The notes under the pieces: generated by a model | Told to the model about the DNA's origin: nothing | Database searches by the model: none | What the model saw: the letters and a program-made list of their open reading frames with translations, nothing else | Shown here: one piece after another, positions 9,772 to 64,000 of the stretch | Layout: every line of letters starts with the position of its first letter | Numbering within the stretch: the first letter of the stretch is position 1 | Made by a program: the position numbers and the translations under genes | Source of the DNA: Mytilus edulis | Taxonomy: Eukaryota | Direction: 5' to 3' | NCBI RefSeq assembly: GCF_963676685.1 | Contig: NC_092355.1 | Span: 31,186,001 to 31,250,000 of the forward strand | DNA length: 64,000 nt

Positions 9772-10110
9772 ATGGATATAATTATTGAAAGAACGAGCAA
9801 CCAAGGTGTAGCAGAAAATAGAAATGTTCATGGAATGAGGAAAGTAACATATTGGGAAAATATGGAGTTAAACGTTTTCCATACCGTGGGAGAAAAAGGT
9901 TCACTCCAATTCTCAATCAACATTTTGACGGTCAAATTAGTATAACAAACGATGTATTTGGCCTCACTATTCAGCAATTTGAACGGACCTTTAGAGCCAG
10001 TTTGGAAAGAAGAAAACACAATTCTCAATGGATACTTAATTTAAGATATCCTTTGAAATCTTCCAACAAATACCTTGAATATTTGGAAAATTTTACAGGT
10101 CATATTGAAG
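9772..10110 (+). pseudogene. cGLR copy 1, first coding exon (N-terminal domain); 1-nt deletion in an A-run
   Basis: ATG at 9772; MDIIIERTSNQ...HGMRKVTYWE/KYGVKRFPYRG...YLEYLENFTGHIE. TGGGAAAA has A4 versus A5 in the three paralogs. Phase-1 donor G|GTAAAT at 10111. Confidence 0.85.
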
Positions 10111-11289: not shown

Positions 11290-13275
11290 GTAATGTGCTC
11301 TGGCCCGGAATAAATGTTAATAATGAATACCTGTATGAACAGCTTGTTCAAATAGTCGGAAAAGAAAGAGACATACGTCATAGACAACGGTTATTTCTGA
11401 TTAAAGATATAATAGAAAATATTATGGACATTTCTAATATACAGCGTATTACAAGTGGAAGTATATCCGAAGGACTTGATTTACCCGGCAGTGACCTTGA
11501 TATGATGTTTGTAATTGGTGTTGTAAAAGTAGTAAATATGTCAGAAAATATGAAATGTTCACGAAAATATACAAAACTGATGATGGAAACAGACCCCTTT
11601 TTTTGTATCCAGGGTTCACAAGACTGAAGTTAGCTGCAGTCGACTATCATTCTTCTTATCGTTTGATCAAAGATTCTCTAGTACAACGTTTGCAAACCAT
11701 CAGAAATGGTTTTTATGTATCAACCTATAAATTCGTTCAAAATATTCAACAAATAACGGAGTCAGTTGAAACGTTATTACACGGTCCATGTTTATCGGAT
11801 TTGTATGAGAAAATGGACGTTGCTTATTGTCTCCGTTGTAAATCATTCCAATACAATGCAAGCAATTGGGTAAATCGTCATAGAAAACATTGGCCACCTA
11901 GTGAAGTAATTGACACAATTGTGAAGAACGGCTGTTTGTTGGTACCTGTTGGACCTAAAACAATGACAAACGATCAATTGTTTTGGAGGTTATCTTTTTC
12001 TGTGGCAGAAAAACAACTGGTTCATTCGTTTAATTATACGCAATTATTATGTTACGGCCTTCTTAAATTAACATTGAAACACATCATTAACAAAAAACCT
12101 GGTGTAAAGGATTTGTTATGCTCCTACTTTCTAAAAACAACGCTCTTCTGGTTATCAGAGAAAGTGTCTATCGAGACATTTCAGTTAGCTAACATATTTA
12201 ACTGCTTTTTCTTGTGATTAGATACATTAAGATCGTTTGTTAACAATTGCTACTGTCCTAACTACTTTATACCTGAACAAAATATGTTTCAAGGAAAGGT
12301 CAATATGAGAAATAATAAGAGATTGCTAAGTATCCTTCACAGTATTGAACGTGGCGGAACAGCTGGACTGATATCTAATTTATTTTGCCTAGCACCAACT
12401 TTTATATGCAAATCTTCCACGCAGTTAGATTTTTTCTTTTATAAATATATCGCCGTATTAAAGTCTCAAACGCTTATAAATGACTGTTACCGAGGAATGA
12501 TTATTGCTAAATCTTTCCTTCAGAGTGAATCATCTATCTTTGTACGGGATGTATGCAAATGGTGGATCGACAGTCTCAATCATTTTGTGGTGCAACTACT
12601 TCCTCGTCCATTTGTGGGACAGAATGTCAAAAATAAACGGAATCGTTATCATAAACATTTACTGCAAAGTTTACAAACAGATGCTGTGAATGGTTGGTTG
12701 TTATACGCTTCGTTTTATTACGTAATTGGACAGTACAAAGTTACACTCCGAATTACAGATTATGTTTTATCAAAGTGTACACATGATAAGTTATATATAG
12801 GCTTTTTAACTTTTCCCCAAGATATAATAAATAACTATGCGAAAAATTTTGTACAAAAAACGTAACACTTAATGAAAAGGCGAAATTAGCGACTATAAAT
12901 CATTTTACATACTTGAAACGTTCATCTTTAATACCTTCGGAGCTAAGCCTGGAGGTGGAAAATAATGAATTGTATGTACCTCCTGTTGTTTTAACTCATT
13001 GTCTTAGAGTTTTGTGTTTCCATCATCTCGGTGAAACCTTCAATACACTACAAGCATGGCAGGATTTGAACTTAACTGTTAGAGAAATGTATTTCATCAC
13101 AAGCTGTCTAAAATCTGAAACATTAACAATTCTCGGTGTGTGCTGTGAGGTATCTGGGGATATTGATTCAGCTTGTTTGTGCTACGATGCAGTTTTACAA
13201 ACCCATAAAGGGACTAATTGTACAGCAGGCATTAGGAAAAAAGAACTCTTGAACAGACGGAATGTTAAACTCTAG
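11290..13275 (+). pseudogene. cGLR copy 1, main exon: Mab-21/cGAS-like nucleotidyltransferase plus TPR-like C-terminus (disrupted as assembled)
   Basis: Acceptor TTTTAG at 11289 is in phase with exon 1. Motifs [51 protein letters not shown] and CPNYFIPEQNMF. Frameshifts near 11600 and 12860; TGA at 12215-12217. Confidence 0.9.
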
Positions 13276-26250: not shown

Positions 26251-28027
26251 AGCAGAAAATTTACAAGATTAACCTTACTTTAAACTTTATCATATGTAAA
26301 AAAATTACATGTAATTATATATGAGAGAGAGAGACTGAAAGAGATTCATTATAGTACATCCATGCTTATACATGTATCATACTCTAAAAAAAATGCTATT
26401 TGAATTCAGGCATTATTTTCCTTCTAATCGAGATCGTTTTTTACAAATAGTCCTGTCGGTGGTGTTTGGTGTCATACAATTGAGGTCCTAACCAAAAATT
26501 TATAAATCATTTTTTGTTTTACGTAGCTTGATCGATTAATCAAACCACGTAGGAAGGAACACAAAAGGTATGTTACTTCTAAACTGGCTTAAAATCAAGT
26601 TGACACTAACTTGTAATAATATACCCAAGATCTACCACAAACTCTACTATATGTGTCAATTTCATTACAACTGATCAGGGAAAATATACAGATCCTGTGA
26701 CATTGCCTTATTTTGGACGATGACCAACGCTCTGTTCTACTTTCTGTGTATCTTCTAGTTTTGTCGTAATTATACACACCTTCAAAATGTGAAGGCTGAA
26801 ATTTAATTGGCTGATATAATAATTACTACAACAGAAAATAGAACTGTGTTTTAATCAGATTAATTTGTAATGAACCTGTCTAGATCAACTTCTAATCATA
26901 CACGGTCTAAGTTTTATCATGAAGTAAATCTCTGTAATCAGTAAATTGTCATGTGACAATTATTTTATCACTATGGGCGTATATGTATGTAAGTTCTAAG
27001 CTAAGGTATGTTTTATTTTGATAAAATTGTTTCTTCTGCATCGTCTACATATTATATAGTGATTTGAATGACTCTTACATCCAAATATCAAACTATTATC
27101 ATGGACAGACAATCATTGTTGAATTGTTATGAATGTATGCCTCCAAATTATATAGGTAGACTGATAAGTCATGTTTGTTTTTCTCCAAAAATCTTACTCG
27201 TAATATAAGACATCAAACGGTCACGAAGTATGAAATCACATACATTAAAACTTACTGCAATGAACAGTCATGTTTGTTTTCTTCCAGAAAGGTCAAACGC
27301 GTTCTTATACATCAAACGGGCATCAAATGTGGAATCACATGGCATAAAGTTCACTGCATTCTCATACTAAACACCGGTACAAATTGAACACTGGTCTCAT
27401 CTTTCAATGACAATAAGACGCCAAAATTAATTAAAGGCCAAAGGATGGCTCCATGGTGATTTTCTGTGTATTTTCAATATAAGTCTATATGCATTTCAAC
27501 ATGTTCGTAATTACAAGATATAACTACAATGTATGTACTATCAATAGTGCGTTCAACTTTTGATATATATCCTGGTCATTGTTAATGAAACAAAATAACC
27601 ATTTTAAACTTGAATAACAAACAAAACTCATTTCCGTTTGTACATTGTTTATCAGTCTTCTAGCGTTCTTGTGAACTAAGCTTCGGGGAAAAATAATTAA
27701 ATTTGAATGATCATTCTTCCTAACAGAATCACAAAAAAGACGAACAAAACACTTGTTGATAGCAAGAAGATAATTTTCAGAAATAGCTTCTTCCTGAACT
27801 ATACATATTATTCCAATTATTTATATGATTTAATTACAGAATTAACCAACTGAACCTTTTTGCTTGGTATTATGTGACCTTTCGTTGAATATAACAGTCA
27901 TGTACTAAATATGTAATTGTTAGTATTTCCATTATATTAGAATATGAAGATGTGATATAATAGCCAATGAGATACCCATTCATCAGATACCTCAAAATGA
28001 AATAAAATTTACCTTTCATGTTGCACT

Positions 28028-29725
28028 CAAAGAGTCGTTATTAATGGTCAGACATCATCGAGTCAAAACACCTATGCTGGTGTACACCCGGGCTCTATAC
28101 TCGGTCCTCTGCTTTTTCTTATCTATGTTAAAGATATTAAAGTTGGAATTATCATCAATATCAAACTGTTCGCTGATGTAACTTCCCTTGTCAAACAAAT
28201 TGATGACATCTCTGATTGTTTTCAAACTCTGAACAGTGACCGCGACACATTGAACACATGGGCCAATCAATGGTGTGTAACTTTCAATGCACAAAAAACT
28301 GTGTATCTTATTATTTCTAAGAAGAAGCAAATACCCCATTACCCCCCATTGATCTTAAATAATGTGATTATAAAGAGAGTTAAACATTTAGGTTTTATTT
28401 TGAATGATAAACTTTCTTGGACCGATCATATTGCTGACATTTGTAAGAAATGTCATAGTAAACTGAACACTATCTTAAGGATGCGACATATATTATTTAG
28501 AGTATGCATTGAAGAATTATATAAACCATTTCTTCGTTCATTGCTAGACCATGCAGATGTCATCTACTATAACTGCTCTAGCGCCGATTTTGCAAACATT
28601 TAACATGTACAAAGACGTGCCTGCATTATATCTACTTGGGCAATCAGGGTCACAAAACATGTCATTTTATTGAGAGAGGTTAGCCTTGAGCGCCTTTAAA
28701 CACGTCATCAAGTTCTTAGACTTACATACCTGTACAAAATTAAAATCATCTTGTCCAAGATTATCTCTGTTATATCCATCCATTGTTCCATCATAACACC
28801 GAAAACTATAACTTATGACGACATGCCAACGTGATACCCATCAGGTCAAGAACAGTAGCATAATATAATTATTGCATGTCTTCTAGCTACTATTAAAGAC
28901 TGATTTTCAGCAACATCTTTGGCGAGTTTCAAAAAGTTGTTAAAGAAAAAGAATCTCAATGTATGAAGTAAAAAAAAATATATTCACAAGGACATGGTTA
29001 TGAGAAAAAGATTCATACTAGATTACGCTTAGGGCTTAATGCCCTTATTGACCTCTTGTACAAATATAATCTTACATTAAATAGGTTTTTCGATTTCTGC
29101 CCAGGTAACCGTATTGAAAGCACTAAGCACTATTAATTTATTGCGCCCGTTTCATGAACTATCGGATTACTCTTCTACTTGGTATTAAGAATCTGATTTG
29201 TCCGGATATAAATAAAGCAATGTTGCGGGATCTATGTCCCAACTATCTGAGCAAAATTTTGATAGAAGGTAGTGACCATTTGTCTGATGATACTAATTTA
29301 GAGTTGTTTGAGTGTGTGTTTCGATATATTAAATCTTCAAACAGATTTTCTCGATAGCTAAATAACTTATTTGTACTTTATTTTTTCCTTGTAATTAAAC
29401 ATATAAGGTATGAAAAACACTTTCCATTGGATCTGATTGTACTCAAAATCGTCTTTCGGTAATCAGTATGCTATATTTCTGAATCATACATGTTTGTAAA
29501 GTTGTGTGCATGTGAGTAAGAATGAGCGAGTGATTGGATGGGTGTGTAGTCAAATTACATTCTTATGTCTTGTCCTGTAAATATTGTCTTGTCTTGTGTT
29601 TAACATGTTTGTAAACTTTAAAAAAAAACTAACTTTGTTAATTTTGAATCTATATATATCTATGTTGAGGAGACACACCCGTAGCCTCTGGTTGTTTGCA
29701 TCCTCTTTAAATAATTTAATAAAAA
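28028..29725 (+). mobile_element. 5'-truncated, degraded CR1-clade-like LINE (RT C-terminal part and 3' UTR)
   Basis: QRVVING...AGVHPGSILGPLLFLIYVKD...IKLFADVTSL...WANQWCVTFNAQKT...KHLGFILNDKLSWTDHI...HTRLRLGL...FRYIKSSNRF, with many stops and frameshifts. Confidence 0.85.
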
Positions 29726-30949: not shown

Positions 30950-31292
30950 ATGAATAAGTATACCAATAAATCAAGTAATCAAAGTGAATATGACAATGAG
31001 CTTGTGTATGGAATGAGAAAAATAACGTATTGGGAAAAATATGGCGTTAAACGCTTTCTGTACCGCGGATGACGACAATAATGCACACCTTTTCTCGAGT
31101 AACATTTTGATGGTCGAATAGGTATCTCAAAAGACGTATTTGGTCTCACTATTCACCAGTTTGAAAAGAAATTCAAAGCCTGTTTAAAAAGAATGAAACA
31201 TAATTCACAGTGGATTTTGAATTTTGGATTTCCTGTTAAATGTTCGATCGAGTACCTTGAATATTTAGAGAATTGTGAAGATCGTGATGAAG
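30950..31292 (+). pseudogene. cGLR copy 2, first coding exon (three in-frame stops)
   Basis: MNKYTNKSSNQSEYDNELVYGMRKITYWEKYGVKRFLYRG*RQ*CTPFLE*HFDG...YLEYLENCEDRDE; donor G|GTAACC at 31293. Confidence 0.85.
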
Positions 31293-34676: not shown

Positions 34677-35588
34677 TATATATGATATATATATATACAA
34701 GTATATATATATATATTTATCATTCAGGTCATACATATTGGTCTGAAGATAATGTTCACCAGCAATATGTATATGAACAACTTGTAAATATAATCGGAAA
34801 GGAAACAGATTTACAGCGGTTATTTTTGGTACAAGATGTGATTAATTGGGTCAGGATTAACATACATATCAAGTGGAAGTTTAGCTGAAGGTTTGAGTTT
34901 ACCTGGCAGTGATCTTGATATCATGTACGTTTTACACGGTATTAAAGTCGTCAATAGGGAACAGGATATACCAATTCCAAATGAATTTGCAACACTGTTG
35001 ATGGAGATAAACCCTAATCATCTAGGATTTAGCAGACTTAAATTAGCTGAAGGTTTCGAGACATCTAGTCCACTTCTTTAAAAAATGGTTACAAAAACCG
35101 ACGAAGGTTTATACCTAGAACCCCATGAATTCATTTCAATTTTTCAACAACATACAATACCTACATGGCCCATGTGTTTCAGATAAATGTATGGCTTTGA
35201 ATATAGCAGTTGTTTCCGAAATAAATCACTTCCCTTACTATGTAAAACAATGGGTTTGTCGACAAAGAAAACAATGGCCGCCGAATGCAGTTATTGATAC
35301 CATATATATAATGAGATTTGGATGTTTGCTGGTACCAATCGGACCTAAAACGATGACAAATAATCAGTTTCTATGGAAATTATCATTTTCAGTTGCAGAA
35401 AAACAACTTTTACACCCAACTATTATGCTACGGTCTACTTAAATTAACATTGAAACACATCATAATCAAAAAGCCAGGTGAAGAGGATTTGTTATGTTCA
35501 TATTTTCTAAAAACAACGTTGTTTTGGTTGTCAGAGGAAGCATCCATCTAGACATTTCAATTACAAAACTATTTCACTTTTAAAAATT

Positions 35589-36982
35589 GGCCGTTTCAGA
35601 ATCTAATGCATTCTGGGTAATATTTTCAAAAGCGTACACCAAGGCGTTGTGATTGGTTTAAAACATTCTAAACAATGGAAATTCAACCGATGACGTAACG
35701 TTATTTTCGTTTTAGGGTACGAACAATAAAATTACCCATGATCAGGGTTTCCGCTGGCGGTCGCAATTTGCGAAAAAACAATAATTGTGGCGATAAAAAT
35801 TCGTCATTTGCGAAAGAATTTGGCGAAAGAAATATATATATCCATAACGATTTATTTTCCTCCATCTTGTTTATTTACCTTTTTCGAGTTTCTCGGACTT
35901 TACCCAATCAGTCAATACTCGGAATTCACCTTGACCTTATTAAGATTTGGACAGAAAATCAATAATCAGCTGATTGCATTTTATAGCTATCGACAACAAA
36001 GGACTAATTAATAAAGGTGTTGATTGAATTGTTTGACAAAATGATATGGTTAAATGGCTTCCACTAAATGTCACATGCCGAATTTATTTACCACTTTTCG
36101 ACGCACGTGTTTGAAGCAAACTTTGACGTCTCCTCTCCTTTTAAAGATAGTTTAAAAAGAAAGCTGTTGTTGTGACGAAAAATGTTCAAAAGCAAGAAAA
36201 ATCTCCGATTCAAAACTTTAATTATCCTTTGACTTTAATATAGGTAATTGATTAGGGAGACTACTTTAAAGTCGTTTGAGTGACACACGTGTTTTAAGCA
36301 AAGTTTTACGTCTTAACGTTTTCATTTACGATGGACAAGAAAAGAAAACTGTCGTTATGAAGAAATCTATCCAAAAGGTTGGGAACAACCATCAAATGAG
36401 AGTAACCCTTCAATGTAATGTCTACACATGAAATGAGGGGTCAATTTCATGTGATAAAAGCTTTTGTTTTGTTGTAAAAACCACTTCTTAGTACAAAAGG
36501 GCACATCAGTATTTTTCTTTTAAAGAAACTTTCCCTACGAACTATACTCATGTCTGGTAAATAAATATTATATGATCAAAATATGCCCATTAATTTTGTT
36601 ATATTCCAGGACTTCTTTATTATTAAAAGTATAGTGGTCTCCTCATTTAGAAAAGTTGTTTAAAATACAAGAATATTTTTCCCTTTTAAGTTAAAAAATT
36701 CTGTTGTTTTAAAGTAAACGGTTAGTGTTTATTCATTAAAATGTAGACTCTAAAATAAGTTTGAGAGAATAATCAAAGACACAATGGGGAAAAATCATCT
36801 TAATTAAGGGAGGGGTAGAAAAAAAGGTAAATTTCAAACGAAAAATATATTTATGTTACATGTACTTGGCGAAAAAAATAATAAAGTGGCGAAAAATATA
36901 TTGTTTTGGCGAAAGAGGTGGCGAAAAAAATAATTGACCCAGGGGAAACCCTGCCCATGATGCTTCAAGTACTGAAACGGCC
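35589..36982. mobile_element. Short TIR element with a 4-bp AATT duplication (Sola1-like, superfamily uncertain), containing a nested hAT
   Basis: TIR GGCCGTTTCAG...CTGAAACGGCC. Removing it plus one AATT restores the codon register seen in copies 1 and 3. Confidence 0.75.
35743..36953. mobile_element. Non-autonomous hAT element
   Basis: TIR CAGGGTTTCCGCTGG / CCAGGGGAAACCCTG; perfect 8-bp TSD CCCATGAT (35735-35742 and 36954-36961); subterminal TGGCGAAA repeats. Confidence 0.9.
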
Positions 36983-38149
36983 AATTGTGCCTAGGTAATT
37001 TAATATCGTAGATAGAAAACTGCCACTGTCCTAATTACTTTATACCTGCACAAAACATGTTTCAGGCAAAAGTAGAGCAATAACCAACTCTTGCTCAGTT
37101 TTCTCGACAGCATTATTTGTGATGAAACTGTAGGACTGGTATCGAATGTATTTTCTAAAGACCTAGCATCGACCATGACAAACAAGTAGACTTTTTGTTT
37201 TATAAGATTTTTTCCAAATTTGGAAACCGTGGATTAATCGCCGTTCAATATCTGCTCCAATCAGAATCATCTGTATATATACGTGATGTTTGCAGAAGAT
37301 GGATATCAAATATTAACCAGTATATACTGTACTACAATAACTTCCTTCTCGGGTCAGAAGAAAGAAGATCGAAAATATACGTAACCGCTATCATAATCAT
37401 TCACAAGATGCCCTACAGCAAGATGTTGTGACTGGGTGGCTGTTGTATGCATCTTTTTACTATGTTATCGGACAGCATAATGTTACACTCCGAATAGTAC
37501 ATCATGTTCTAACAAAGTGTACATCGGATAAGATATGTCACGGCCTGGTATCATATCTCCAAAGACAGACTAATTACTTGCTAAATATGTCCATATGCAA
37601 TCCATAGCATGAAATGGAAAGTTAAGATTAGCAACTATTTCTCCTATTAGATACTTACAGAATTCGTCTTCAATACCCAATGAGTTACAACTTTAGATCC
37701 AAAAAGGCTACATCACCGTAACTCCTGTTGTGATGCCTCATTGTATGAAATTTTTATGTTTTTATCATCTTGGTGATTTTTTTAACAGACAACGGGCGCT
37801 GAGAGATTTGTATTTGACTCTAGAGGATGTTTTTTTTTTATTTCACCAAAACAACAATCATTGTCTTTCTTAATTGGTGGTATGTGCTCAGAATTATCTG
37901 CTGATATAGAAACTGCCTGTCAGTGTTACGTTGCGATAAAAAATATTGTTTCACAGCAAAAATCAGGAAAACAAGAATCTCTTAAAAAGACAGGATTTGG
38001 AATTTTCTTAATAACCGAGAAAAATATACCAGTTTCATTACTTGAAATAAACGTTATATGATGTGTGTCCTTTGAAAACTGGTTATTTCAATCATTACTG
38101 TCATATGTTTAATTGCTTCAGATGAACCTTAAAAGAAATAGCAAGTTCA

Positions 38150-44840: not shown

Positions 44841-45168
44841 ATGTACACCGATACCTCTAGAACAAGCAGACAAAATGGACATATACATGGAATTAGGAAC
44901 ATAACATTTTGGGAAAAATACGGGGTAAAACGCTTTCCATACCGTGGAACACGACGGCACACACCAATTCCTCAACAACATTTTGATGGTCAAATAAGTA
45001 TCTCTAACGACGTACTTGGCCTTACTATTCAGCAGTTTGAAGAGAATTTCAAAGCATGCTTAGAAAGAAGAAAACAAAATTCTGAATGGATCATGAATTT
45101 GAGATATCCAGTTAAATCTTCTAATGAATACCTGGAATACTTAAAGAATTGTAAAAGTCATGATGAAG
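44841..45168 (+). CDS. cGLR copy 3, first coding exon (intact N-terminal domain)
   Basis: Open frame MYTDTSRTSRQ...YLEYLKNCKSHDE; acceptor TTTCAG 10 nt before the ATG; phase-1 donor G|GTAATC at 45169. Confidence 0.8.
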
Positions 45169-49673: not shown

Positions 49674-51644
49674 GTTAAATATTTTGGCCTGATGATTCTC
49701 ATGAAAAATATGTGTACGAACAGCTTGTAAATATAGTCGGTAAGGAAACAGAGATACATCAAAGACAACGTTTATTTCTGGTACAAGATGAAATATATAA
49801 TACTTTGCATCCTACAACTGGGTATACATATCTATCAAGTGGAAGTCTAGCTGAAGGTTTGTGTTGACCAGGCAGTGATCTCGATATAATGAACGTTATA
49901 CATGGTATTAAAGTCGTCACTAGCATGAAGGGTGTAAAAATCCCATATGAATTTGCTACACTTATGATGGAGATAGACCATGCACATCCAGGATTTAGTC
50001 GACTGAAATTGGCCGGCGGGTTCGAGACATCCATTCCAGTACTTCACGATATTGTTACCGAAACCGACAAAGGTTTATATCTAACACCAGAAAAGTTCAT
50101 TGGACGTTTTAAACGGGAACATACAAGTACTAATTTTGTGGATTTACATGGTCCATGTATTTCGGATCGCAATTTATCTTATGATATTACAATTTGTTTT
50201 CGCTGTAAATCGCTCCCATACATTGCGATACCGTGGGTTTATCGGCATAGGAAAGAATGGCCACCAAATGTAATAATAGATGCAATAGTGAGAAATGGGT
50301 GTTTATTGGTACCAATCGGACCAAAACACATGACAAATAATCAATTTTTATGGAGAATGTCATTTTCAGTTGCAGAAAAACAACTTTTGCACGCGTTTAA
50401 CTATACCCAATTATTATGCTACGGTCTACTGAAATTAACATTAAAACACATCATAAACAAACAAAGAAGGATTTACTCTGTTCCTACTTTCTTAAAACGA
50501 CGCTTTTTTGGATATCAGAAGAAGTTTGCATACAGACCTTTCAGTTAGGTAACCTATTTTACTGTTTTTCACTGTGTTTGATTAAATTAAGACCATGGAT
50601 AGAAAACTGTTTCTGTCCGAACTATTTTATACCTGAACAAAATATAAAGGAAAAGTCAATACTTCTAATAATCAGCAATTGCTTAGTGTTCTTGATAATA
50701 TTATTTGTGACGGAACTTCTGGACAAATATCTAATGTACTTTCCAAAGGTCTTGCATCAACTATGAAAAGCAGTTCCACAATTCAGCAAGACTTTTTGTT
50801 TTATAAGATTTTCGCTCAGTTCGGAAATCCCAAGAAAATAAGTCACTGTTACCGGGGGTTGGTTACTGTTACATCTCTGCTGGAATCAGAATCGTCTGAA
50901 TATGTTCTTTATGTTTGCAAACGTTGGAAATCCAAAATCAATCAGTATATGCTACAACTACTACCTTGTCCGGTCAAAGGACATAATATCGAAAATATAC
51001 GACGTCGTTATCACAAACATTTACAAGAAGCGATAAAACAAGATGATGTAACTGGATTGATGATGTTTGCATCGTTTTACTATGTCATTGGCCAGCACAA
51101 TGTAACAATCCAAATAACTGATTATGTCCTATCAAAGTGTACACCTGATCAGGTTTGTCAAGGATTATCATTCTATGTACAAAGACATGTGAATTATTAT
51201 GCTAAACATGTTCATACACAATCTATCAATTTAAATGACAAGTTGAAATTAGCGACCATTTCTGTGGTTACATATTTACAACATTCTTCCATAATACCAG
51301 AAGAGCTAAAACTTGAGATCCAACACTGCATGATCACCGTTACTCCTGTTGTTATGTGTCATTGTCTAAAATTTTTATGCTATTATCATATTCGTGATAT
51401 GTCCAATCGACAACAGGCATTGAGGGATTTGTGTTTGACCATTAAGAAAAAGTACTTTGTTCCACAATAACAACTTTCATTAGCATTACAAGTTTGGAGT
51501 GTTTGCGCTGAATTGTCTGGCGATAAAGATACTGCTTATGATTGTTACGATAAAGCGTCATTGTGTGAAGAGGATGTGTGTATAACAGCAAATATCCGAA
51601 AAACAAATCTATTAAACAAAAAGGCTGTGATATTCTCTGGATAA
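49674..51644 (+). pseudogene. cGLR copy 3, main exon (Mab-21 NTase plus TPR-like tail), disrupted
   Basis: Acceptor TTTCAG at 49673. TAA at 49676-49678; SGSLAEGLC*PGSDLDIM (TGA 49865-49867); frameshifting deletions near 50465 and 50645; TAA at 51468-51470; paralogous tail runs to TAA at 51644. Confidence 0.9.
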
Positions 51645-58719: not shown

Positions 58720-59059
58720 ATGAATACTAAAAGCAATAGAGCAAGCAACCAGAGTGAAGATGACAATGAACATGTGTATGGAATGAGAAAAATAACGTAT
58801 TGGGAAAAATACGATGTTAAACGATTTCCCTACCGTGGAAAACGACGGCACTCTCCCCTTCTTCAACAACGTTTTGACGGTGGAATAAATATTTCTAATG
58901 ACGTATTTGGTCTCACTATTCACCAATTCGAACAGAAATATATAGCTTGCTTGGAAAGAAGGAAACACAATTCACAGCGGATTCTCAATTTGCGATATCC
59001 TGTTAAATCTTCAAACAAATACCTGGAATATTTAGAACATTGTGTTGAACTTGATGATG
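58720..59059 (+). CDS. cGLR copy 4, first coding exon (113 codons, intact)
   Basis: Open frame MNTKSNRASNQ...YLEYLEHCVELDD; consensus phase-1 donor G|GTAAGT at 59060. Confidence 0.9.
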
Positions 59060-61623: not shown

Positions 61624-61640
61624 ACATTGATCTTTATATA

Positions 61641-62492
61641 TGTAGGACTCTAAAGTGCGATGGGGACGCTAAAGTACGATGGTCACGCTCAAGTGCGATG
61701 GTCTACGCTAAAGTGCAATTCCTCCATACGCTATAGTACGATGTTCTGCGAAAGTATAGACGTAAGAAACGTACATGGATTATGACGTTAACAGTCGTTT
61801 ATACAAACTAAAAATGAACACGCCGGAAGACAACTAACAAATATTTGATTCATAAGAACTTCAAGTTTTTATCCAAATGTCTAGTTTGTACATTGCAGGA
61901 AAATATAACATGGATGTATAGTCGCTACAAAAAACAGAGAACATTAAGCTCGGCAAACATCGCTTTTTCCCGTTCATTTAAATTAAACAAATAAATGTAC
62001 ACATTCCGACAATAATCGAATTTTGTATCTGTAATGTAAAAAAGACGATTGTCAGAGGATGTGTTCCTATTAGTGTAACGGCAATCTACACCAATTATCC
62101 AAATATTCAATACGCATTATTTTAAATAAAATATAATATTTTGCGACACATAAATTACCTTTTTAGCAATTGTTACGTACTTTGGTCAGTCTTTTTAATT
62201 TAGAAACAATCACTTTAGCCTATCGGTAAATTATGAAGCCTATCACATATGTTATACCTTAGCATACTAGCTTTTGCTAAAAAAAAAAAAACTGTTTAAA
62301 CCTCGATATTTTGATCCCTCTAATCTTAACTTGTTGTTCCATCGCACTTTAGCGTGATATACCATCGTACTTTAGCGAACAAACAACCATCGCACTTAAA
62401 TAGCGTGAGACACCATCGTATTTTAGCGTAGACCATCGCACTTTAGCGTGACCATCGCACTTTAGAGTATCATCGCACTTTAGAGTCCTACA
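61641..62492. mobile_element. Non-autonomous TIR element with TGT...ACA ends (Ginger-like) in a TA tract
   Basis: TIR TGTAGGACTCTAAAGTGCGATG / CATCGCACTTTAGAGTCCTACA; multiple subterminal CGCTAAAGTGCGATG repeats; TATA flanks. Confidence 0.8.
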
Positions 62493-62499
62493 TATATAT

Positions 62500-63068
62500 A
62501 GTGCAGGCGATTCGGTGTCACGATATCACAGTAGCATGGGTTCGAATCCCGGCGAGGGAAGAACCAAAAATTTGCGAAAGCAAATTTACAGATCTAACAT
62601 TGTTGGGTTGATGTTTAGACGAGTTGTATATACATTATGTACACACCCATGTATCACCATCATTGATGGCGATCCGATGGATACATCTGTTGTATAGTTG
62701 TCACTGACTCAGACGTACTTATAAATATAATTATTTTCTGTGACTGTATATTACATTAATTTGTAGGATCCTTTACTATAGATAATTTAGCTGATCTGTA
62801 ACAATAACATCTTCATGCCTTATATATCATGTACTGTAGTACGCCGCTAGATTAAAACTGACGAGGAAAGGTAACACACGGCCAGCGAAAGCTCTATTTT
62901 TGTAGAGCCCAGGTGGTCGTGTGGTCTAGCGGGACGGCTGCAGTGCAGGCGATTCGGTGTCACGATATCACAGTAGCATGGGTTCGAATCCCGACGAGGG
63001 AAGAACCAAAAATTTGCGAAAGCAAATTTACAGATCTAACATTGTTGGGTTGATGTTTAGACGAGTTG
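62500..63068 (+). repeat. Second tandem array (1.3 units, 442-bp period) of the Pol III-type retroelement
   Basis: Same family as 33877-34676 and the same 3' end GACGAGTTG(TA)n, with a different 5' truncation. Confidence 0.85.
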
Positions 63069-63686
63069 TATATATATATATATAATATATATATACATGT
63101 ATTATAAAGAATAAGAGAATGAATTTGTTGAATGTCACAAGCCCTAAAGCATTGTCGTTTACTTCAATTTCTATTTCATATGTTGTTCCTTCTTTAACAT
63201 TTGAAATATGTGGGGCCTCTTTCTATTCTTTTGATTTCAATTCTTCTCTTTTAAATTCTTTGTTTTCTGGTTATCTCTTTGCCTCTCCAATTTCTTATTC
63301 ATACTTTCCCAAACATTCGGCGTAAATTTTCCTCGGGAACGTTCTGATGCCTCATTTACCTGAAAGTTTTATTTATTTATTTGTAATGAAAAGGTGTAAT
63401 ATATATTACAGTGCAAAATTAATCCAATCATGCATTAAAACATCAATTTAAAAATATTTTATACCTGACTAACAAAGGCACTCATTAAGCGTTTAACATC
63501 ATAATGTGATATATGGCCAGGTTTATTAAGTGATTGCAATAATTAGGTCATCTGGTGATGGGTATGCAATTTTATATTGATTCTGCATATGATGTACATC
63601 CTTTTTAGTGTTTTTTTTTTATATACAATGGCAAAGTTATCTAAATGTGAAAAATGTTCATGCCCATGTTCATTTTTATCTTTCAG

Positions 63687-64000
63687 ATTACATGTCTTGG
63701 CCAGGAAAAGATTTTCATGCAGAATATTTATATAGTCAGCTGGTACACATAGTTGGTAAGGAAACCGACGTACGTTGCAGACAACGGTTATTTCTAATTG
63801 AAGATATAATAAGAAATATTATTCGTCCTTCTTTTATACGTTTTGTAAGCGGACGTTTATCTAAAGGACTGGATTTACCTGGAAGTGATCTGGATATTAT
63901 GTACGTTTTACCATTTGCAGAAGCAATTAGTGATACACAGAATATAAAAGACATCACAACACTGTTAATGGAGATAGATTCCTTTCATCCTGGGTTTACA
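63687..64000 (+). CDS. cGLR copy 4, main exon (partial, open to the window edge): Mab-21/cGAS-like nucleotidyltransferase
   Basis: Acceptor TTTCAG at 63686, in phase with exon 1. DYMSWPGKDFHAEYLYSQLVHIVGKETDVRCRQRLFLIEDI...VSGRLSKGLDLPGSDLDIMYV...MEIDSFHPGFT with no stop. Confidence 0.85.

Follow-up and report, generated by a model that had tools for sequence, protein, structure and literature searches.

A conserved, clade-specific N-terminal domain of Mytilus cGAS-like receptors and its possible role as a nucleic-acid-binding arm

The stretch of Mytilus edulis DNA analysed here, which we call the window, is 64,000 nucleotides long (contig NC_092355.1 of assembly GCF_963676685.1, positions 31,186,001 to 31,250,000, forward strand). 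It contains four tandem copies of one two-exon gene for a cGAS-like receptor (cGLR), all on the plus strand. Our subject is the segment 58720-59059, the first coding exon of copy 4 of this Mytilus cGLR, a protein with a Mab-21 core and a TPR-like tail. The exon starts with an ATG at 58720 and has an open frame of 113 codons that closes on a phase-1 donor, G/GT, at 59059/59060. It encodes a variable tail (amino acids, hereafter aa, 1-21) followed by a conserved domain, aa 22-110. Within the domain lie a basic-aromatic arm, aa 22-46 (58783-58857), which carries the motif KxFPYxGxR and is modelled with low confidence, and a predicted helical half, aa 60-105 (58897-59034), with the motifs NDxFG, IxQFE..CLxRR, IxNxxxPxK and YLEYL. 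The second exon has its acceptor AG at 63685-63686 and codes from 63687; the junction codon preserves the frame, and the part inside the window (63687-64000) encodes the spine helix and the nucleotidyltransferase (NTase) loop and continues past the window end. The original prediction for this locus, made from the DNA letters, placed the domain on an exon of its own. The donor and the in-frame junction bear this out, as does splicing in an intact paralogue, L032, where contigs of the runs X1 and X3 connect the two exons across a 1185-base GT..AG intron; the short side of the junction is 128 letters in X3 and only 26 in X1, and both runs, which are not recorded as RNA, are presumed to be so. The G/GT donor is common to most of the 50 listed loci of the domain exon.

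Upstream of copy 4, the first coding exon of copy 3 (44841-45168) has an open frame, and its second exon (49674-51644), encoding the cGLR core and helical tail, carries premature stops and frameshifts. Copy 2 has three in-frame stops in its first coding exon (30950-31292) and many stops and frameshifts in its second (34728-38008), together with an insertion of about 1.4 kb at 35579-36960. In copy 1 a single frameshift lies in the first coding exon (9772-10110), and the second exon (11290-13275) has frameshifts and one stop. In copy 4 itself the activation loop reads GR, where 51/51 homologues have GS, and past the window end there are a frameshift near aa 496 and, within the tail, an interruption of about 6 kb. 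A 21-base tandem repeat of about 19 units (L031:2325-2738) lies where this interruption begins. An uninterrupted frame together with an intact activation loop is found in none of the four window copies, and all four are pseudogenes of a mussel cGLR subfamily, a point overlooked in the original prediction, which had compared copies 3 and 4. The cluster continues past the window end with two intact paralogues at a distance of 35-65 kb, L032:1502-5026 on the plus strand and L034 on the minus strand (product P0004), and with a frameshifted paralogue in L033. Four dead copies next to intact ones demonstrate a rapid birth and death of these receptors.

Residues G171, S172, D183, D185 and D283, that is the GS activation loop and three acidic catalytic residues, are present in 51/51 homologues. 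There are small departures from the printed cGLR pattern, a Ser before the GS and 97 residues between the second and third Asp, and the published survey of cGLRs (PMC9980059) lists these proteins as cGLRs despite them. P0004 matches PF03281 (E = 8.5e-8) and PF20266 (E = 1.2e-11), and intact family members have a predicted structure that is cGAS/CD-NTase-like. In sequence and predicted structure they thus appear to be cGLRs in the sense of that survey. Its Table S1 includes these proteins with the N-terminal domain trimmed off, which also escaped the original prediction; one core motif occurs there 37 times, and the rows listed are all from Mytilus. Table S2 gives Mab-21 as the only domain for 6/6 accessions checked. 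Bivalves have the largest cGLR repertoires, and a supplementary table of the same survey credits M. galloprovincialis with 218 genes. Activators are known for only a minority of these receptors, and the screen table of the survey has no Mytilus entry.

The domain itself matched no known family in the searches made. None of 41 members scored above the cut-off in Pfam, which includes the death fold, ankyrin and zinc finger families (best E 0.025), in agreement with the initial impression that no known accessory domain was present, and the domain had no match in PHROGs, PDB sequences or the Atlas. A profile search, as had been proposed at the outset, of 1.84 billion representative proteins returned 60 matches, all from this family except one repeat protein, a chance match; 24 were inspected and the remainder were already known members or of similar score, and cGAS was not among the matches. 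A full-text literature search, whose coverage excludes most subscription journals, found no paper on the domain. One exon-1 product, P0323, is labelled "endonuclease IV" at its source, and Pfam gives this no support. We conclude that this is a distinct and as yet unnamed domain, restricted to one lineage and carried by a receptor family that is already known.

How well conserved is it? The original prediction had counted 65/91 identical residues between the cores of copies 3 and 4, and our count is 64/91 (70.3%), with 63/85 up to the last conserved Leu and 72/109 across the whole of exon 1; over the first 103 aligned residues of exon 2 these copies share 50/103 (48.5%). Among 51 full-length homologues (1275 pairs), a set picked by similarity of the domain and therefore biased in its favour, identity is 73% in the domain, 36% in aa 1-21, 34% in the linker (aa 111-127), 58% at the NTase start (aa 128-215) and 56% across exon 2. 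In the same set aa 216-275, 450-560 and 560-771 are 39%, 43% and 53% identical, and the Mab-21 C-lobe (aa 330-450) is 75% identical, with 79% in the best 89-residue window of exon 2. The claim that the domain is more conserved than the adjacent NTase segment stands, with the qualification that the domain is no more conserved than the C-lobe. The domain is under purifying selection. The ratio of nonsynonymous to synonymous substitution (dN/dS) among 41 genomic copies is 0.17 in the core as opposed to 0.5-0.6 in the tail, the core value being rough since it derives from 525/820 pairs, with saturated or very low dS removed, at a dS of about 1.1. The best-conserved part, aa 60-105, has a dN/dS of about 0.16. 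The noted richness in basic and aromatic residues also holds, with K+R at 18% and F+W+Y at 15.5% of the core, compared with 10% and 11% in exon 2. Across the 51 homologues aa 22-46 carry a mean net charge of +7.3 (range +4 to +10); K/R clusters lie at aa 34-43 and 80-82, and the core has only one well-conserved Cys.

Modelled alone, the domain reaches a predicted local distance difference test score (pLDDT) of 60 and a predicted template modelling score (pTM) of 0.28, with a short helix at 27-30, a hairpin at 47-59 and helices at 61-92 and 99-112. The segment aa 1-67 has low pLDDT, yet conservation is strong and helices are predicted after aa 61. The hairpin may not be a conserved element, because this segment differs between the Mytilus set and a divergent group of metagenome sequences. 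The alignment with cGAS is limited to residues 124-474, with starts that range over 122-127, and the domain lies before it; the spine begins at helix 120-136.

The domain marks one clade of these receptors. There are at least 103 domain matches in this genome, mostly on contig 12, and an NTase exon lies within 20 kb downstream of 88/101 of them, the lower total reflecting the removal of two rows, each the second half of a frameshifted copy. Conversely, among 150 NTase exons scored of 502 candidates, a domain exon lies upstream of 83/96 that score at least 60 bits and of 2/54 weaker ones. An in-frame Met is found 46-54 residues ahead of the GS loop in 20/20 sister genes as compared with 3/49 domain-clade proteins; sister cGLRs begin at a Met immediately before the spine, and the oyster relatives among the Table S1 rows begin at the spine. 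Relative to the TPR-tailed cGLRs of bivalves, which combine Mab-21 (PF03281) and Mab-21_C (PF20266), the subfamily has about 110 additional residues at its N-terminus, encoded by a separate exon. No trace of the domain (best E 0.02) was found in 16 upstream stretches of 10 kb, belonging to 14 sister genes and two domain-clade genes without a nearby exon 1. In a tree of 48 NTase fragments (122 columns), 16 sister rows separate from the other 32 with support 100/99 and all 23 domain bearers fall on the 32-row side; a single gain of the domain fits this tree, which is rooted only at its midpoint. The divergent metagenome group is 46% identical to the Mytilus set, with 24 positions shared at 85% or more (68 sequences). 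Eight source records apparently recur between its exon-1 products and a set of products with exon 2 only, suggesting that another host carries the same two-exon gene. A divergent sub-branch (P0118, P0174, P0175) carries, ahead of the domain, a repeat rich in Asp and Asn that is up to about 120 residues long.

At two loci a pair of intact domain exons precedes a single NTase exon: G000:C13:30159949 and 30167444, 7.5 kb apart (L061, L062), and G000:C13:30038182 and 30046886, 8.7 kb apart (L063, L064). No long NTase frame lies between the members of either pair. In many family members an AG stands five bases before the ATG, so that a phase-1 donor would splice to it in frame, and the gene models P0001 and P0002 carry two tandem domains. 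The paired exons are either tandem domains or alternative first exons. Several Mytilus gene models lack the domain, starting inside or after it, and five single gene models (P0013, P0029, P0057, P0099, P0108) fuse it to SRCR repeats, an aspartic protease, a SAM-named protein, a transporter or another unrelated protein; each fusion was seen once and may be a gene-model error.

What might such a domain do? The original prediction had offered nucleic-acid sensing or oligomerisation, and the support for the former is compositional and positional. We tentatively favour the possibility that the domain acts as an accessory nucleic-acid-binding arm that helps to switch the enzyme on, because the arm is basic-aromatic and sits where cGAS has its DNA-binding N-terminus, the pI of the core is higher in the domain clade than in the sister clade (8.3 vs 6.4) and nucleic-acid-sensing cGLRs have a high pI (PMC9980059). 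The cGAS N-terminal region is described as disordered and DNA-binding in PMC11761673. With that of vertebrate cGAS (about aa 1-160) the domain has in common its position before the spine helix, its basic character and its place outside the catalytic fold, and a basic segment directly before the spine, the mark of a cGAS-type DNA-binding region, is indeed present. In invertebrates the cGAS N-terminus is short, at most 70 residues, according to PMC10855445. On a nucleic-acid-binding model of the mussel domain, contact with a polyanion, for instance dsRNA or dsDNA, would order the basic-aromatic half, the helical half would keep the arm against the enzyme beside the spine helix, and binding would raise affinity or clustering and hence the synthesis of cyclic dinucleotides for STING. 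If activation depended on a constant N-terminal arm, core-only constructs from this clade would look inactive. The sister cGLRs without the domain (L093-L112) have a more acidic core and a more basic tail (median net charge +10.5 vs +3), as if the charge had been placed at the opposite end of the protein.

Several observations weigh against a nucleic-acid-binding arm. The domain matched no nucleic-acid-binding family in Pfam or by profile. Its predicted elements follow the order of the double-stranded RNA-binding domain (dsrm, PF00035), namely short helix, hairpin and long helix, but this likeness is superficial: hhalign gave a probability of 0.05% against a small 11-row profile of dsRBD pieces from the same genome, and dsrm matched none of the 41 members. 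Conservation is highest in aa 60-105 and not in the basic half, and aa 85-110 are net negative. The pLDDT of aa 1-67 is below 50 in the full-protein model and 53-65 when the domain is modelled alone. Even with the domain, only 26/49 proteins exceed a pI of 8.5, and the spine segment is near neutral, like that of the sister clade (net +0.5 vs +1.0). The N-terminus of cGAS is disordered, whereas strong purifying selection acts on the mussel domain, in which helices are predicted and aromatic, Pro, Gly, Asn and Cys residues occur at invariant positions; it is far more conserved, aromatic and helical than a tail of the cGAS type. Finally, its constancy in a diversifying family fits docking to a fixed protein, or an internal latch, nearly as well. 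A bolder version of the nucleic-acid-binding arm, which we consider doubtful, is that the domain is a new nucleic-acid-binding fold that arose in the mussel lineage on a mobile phase-1 exon and was joined to a single cGLR clade, a shared sensing arm for about 100 receptors that would be an independently invented, structured counterpart of the cGAS N-terminus, tunable by tandem exon duplication.

In expanded receptor families, signalling domains stay constant amid divergence, and a constant part may equally bind a constant host protein. The domain could accordingly be a docking or oligomerisation module that binds one invariant host protein or itself, leaving sensing to the variable core surface and the TPR-like tail. 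The steadiness of the domain, set against the divergence of aa 216-275, 450-560 and 560-771, would be as expected, and the long helix 61-92, amphipathic in the model, and the paired domain exons that some genes carry before one NTase exon (tandem domains in P0001 and P0002) also speak for such a module, which we regard as a close rival of the arm, though a somewhat less likely one. A little less probable in our judgement is an intramolecular latch on the Mab-21 C-lobe or tail, which would keep the enzyme off, or stabilised, until a ligand binds elsewhere. The near-complete confinement of the domain to the enzyme, in this genome and in the profile search, and a conservation equal to that of the C-lobe speak for a latch, and the invariant hydrophobic and polar residues of aa 60-105 combined with poor folding alone are consistent with a fixed internal interface. 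However, the model gives no sign of packing, because the pLDDT of aa 91-110 is the same whether the domain is modelled by itself (80, 77) or within the whole protein (81, 76) and aa 61-90 are less confident in the latter, and sister cGLRs persist without the domain. The clustered K/R residues, and the membrane binding by the cGAS N-terminus mentioned in PMC10855445, might instead indicate that the domain directs localisation, by nuclear import or by attachment to acidic membrane lipids, and does not sense a ligand; we think this improbable, as about 10-25 residues suffice for such a signal and there are 85 here, N, D, Q, F, C, P and Y residues among them being invariant. That the domain merely prolongs the spine helix, or belongs remotely to a known domain family, is very improbable, even though the model is too uncertain for a fold search to exclude a known fold, since cGAS alignments and the spine start beyond it, after a linker of low identity with pLDDT below 50 at aa 111-114, in accord with the initial reading, and since no known family matched.

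The window also contains repeats and traces of mobile elements. Between copies 1 and 2, a reverse-transcriptase fragment lies at 28001-28600 on the plus strand (RVT_1, E = 7.9e-5, below the cut-off). A repeat resembling a short interspersed element (SINE), with a tRNA B-box-like motif, occurs in the introns of copies 2 and 4 (34149, 34589, 62539 and 62981), and very many contigs from four runs map to 62500-63070. In the intron of copy 4, inverted and internally repeated ends at about 61640-61720 and 62330-62490 flank some 600 bases and resemble a miniature inverted-repeat transposable element.
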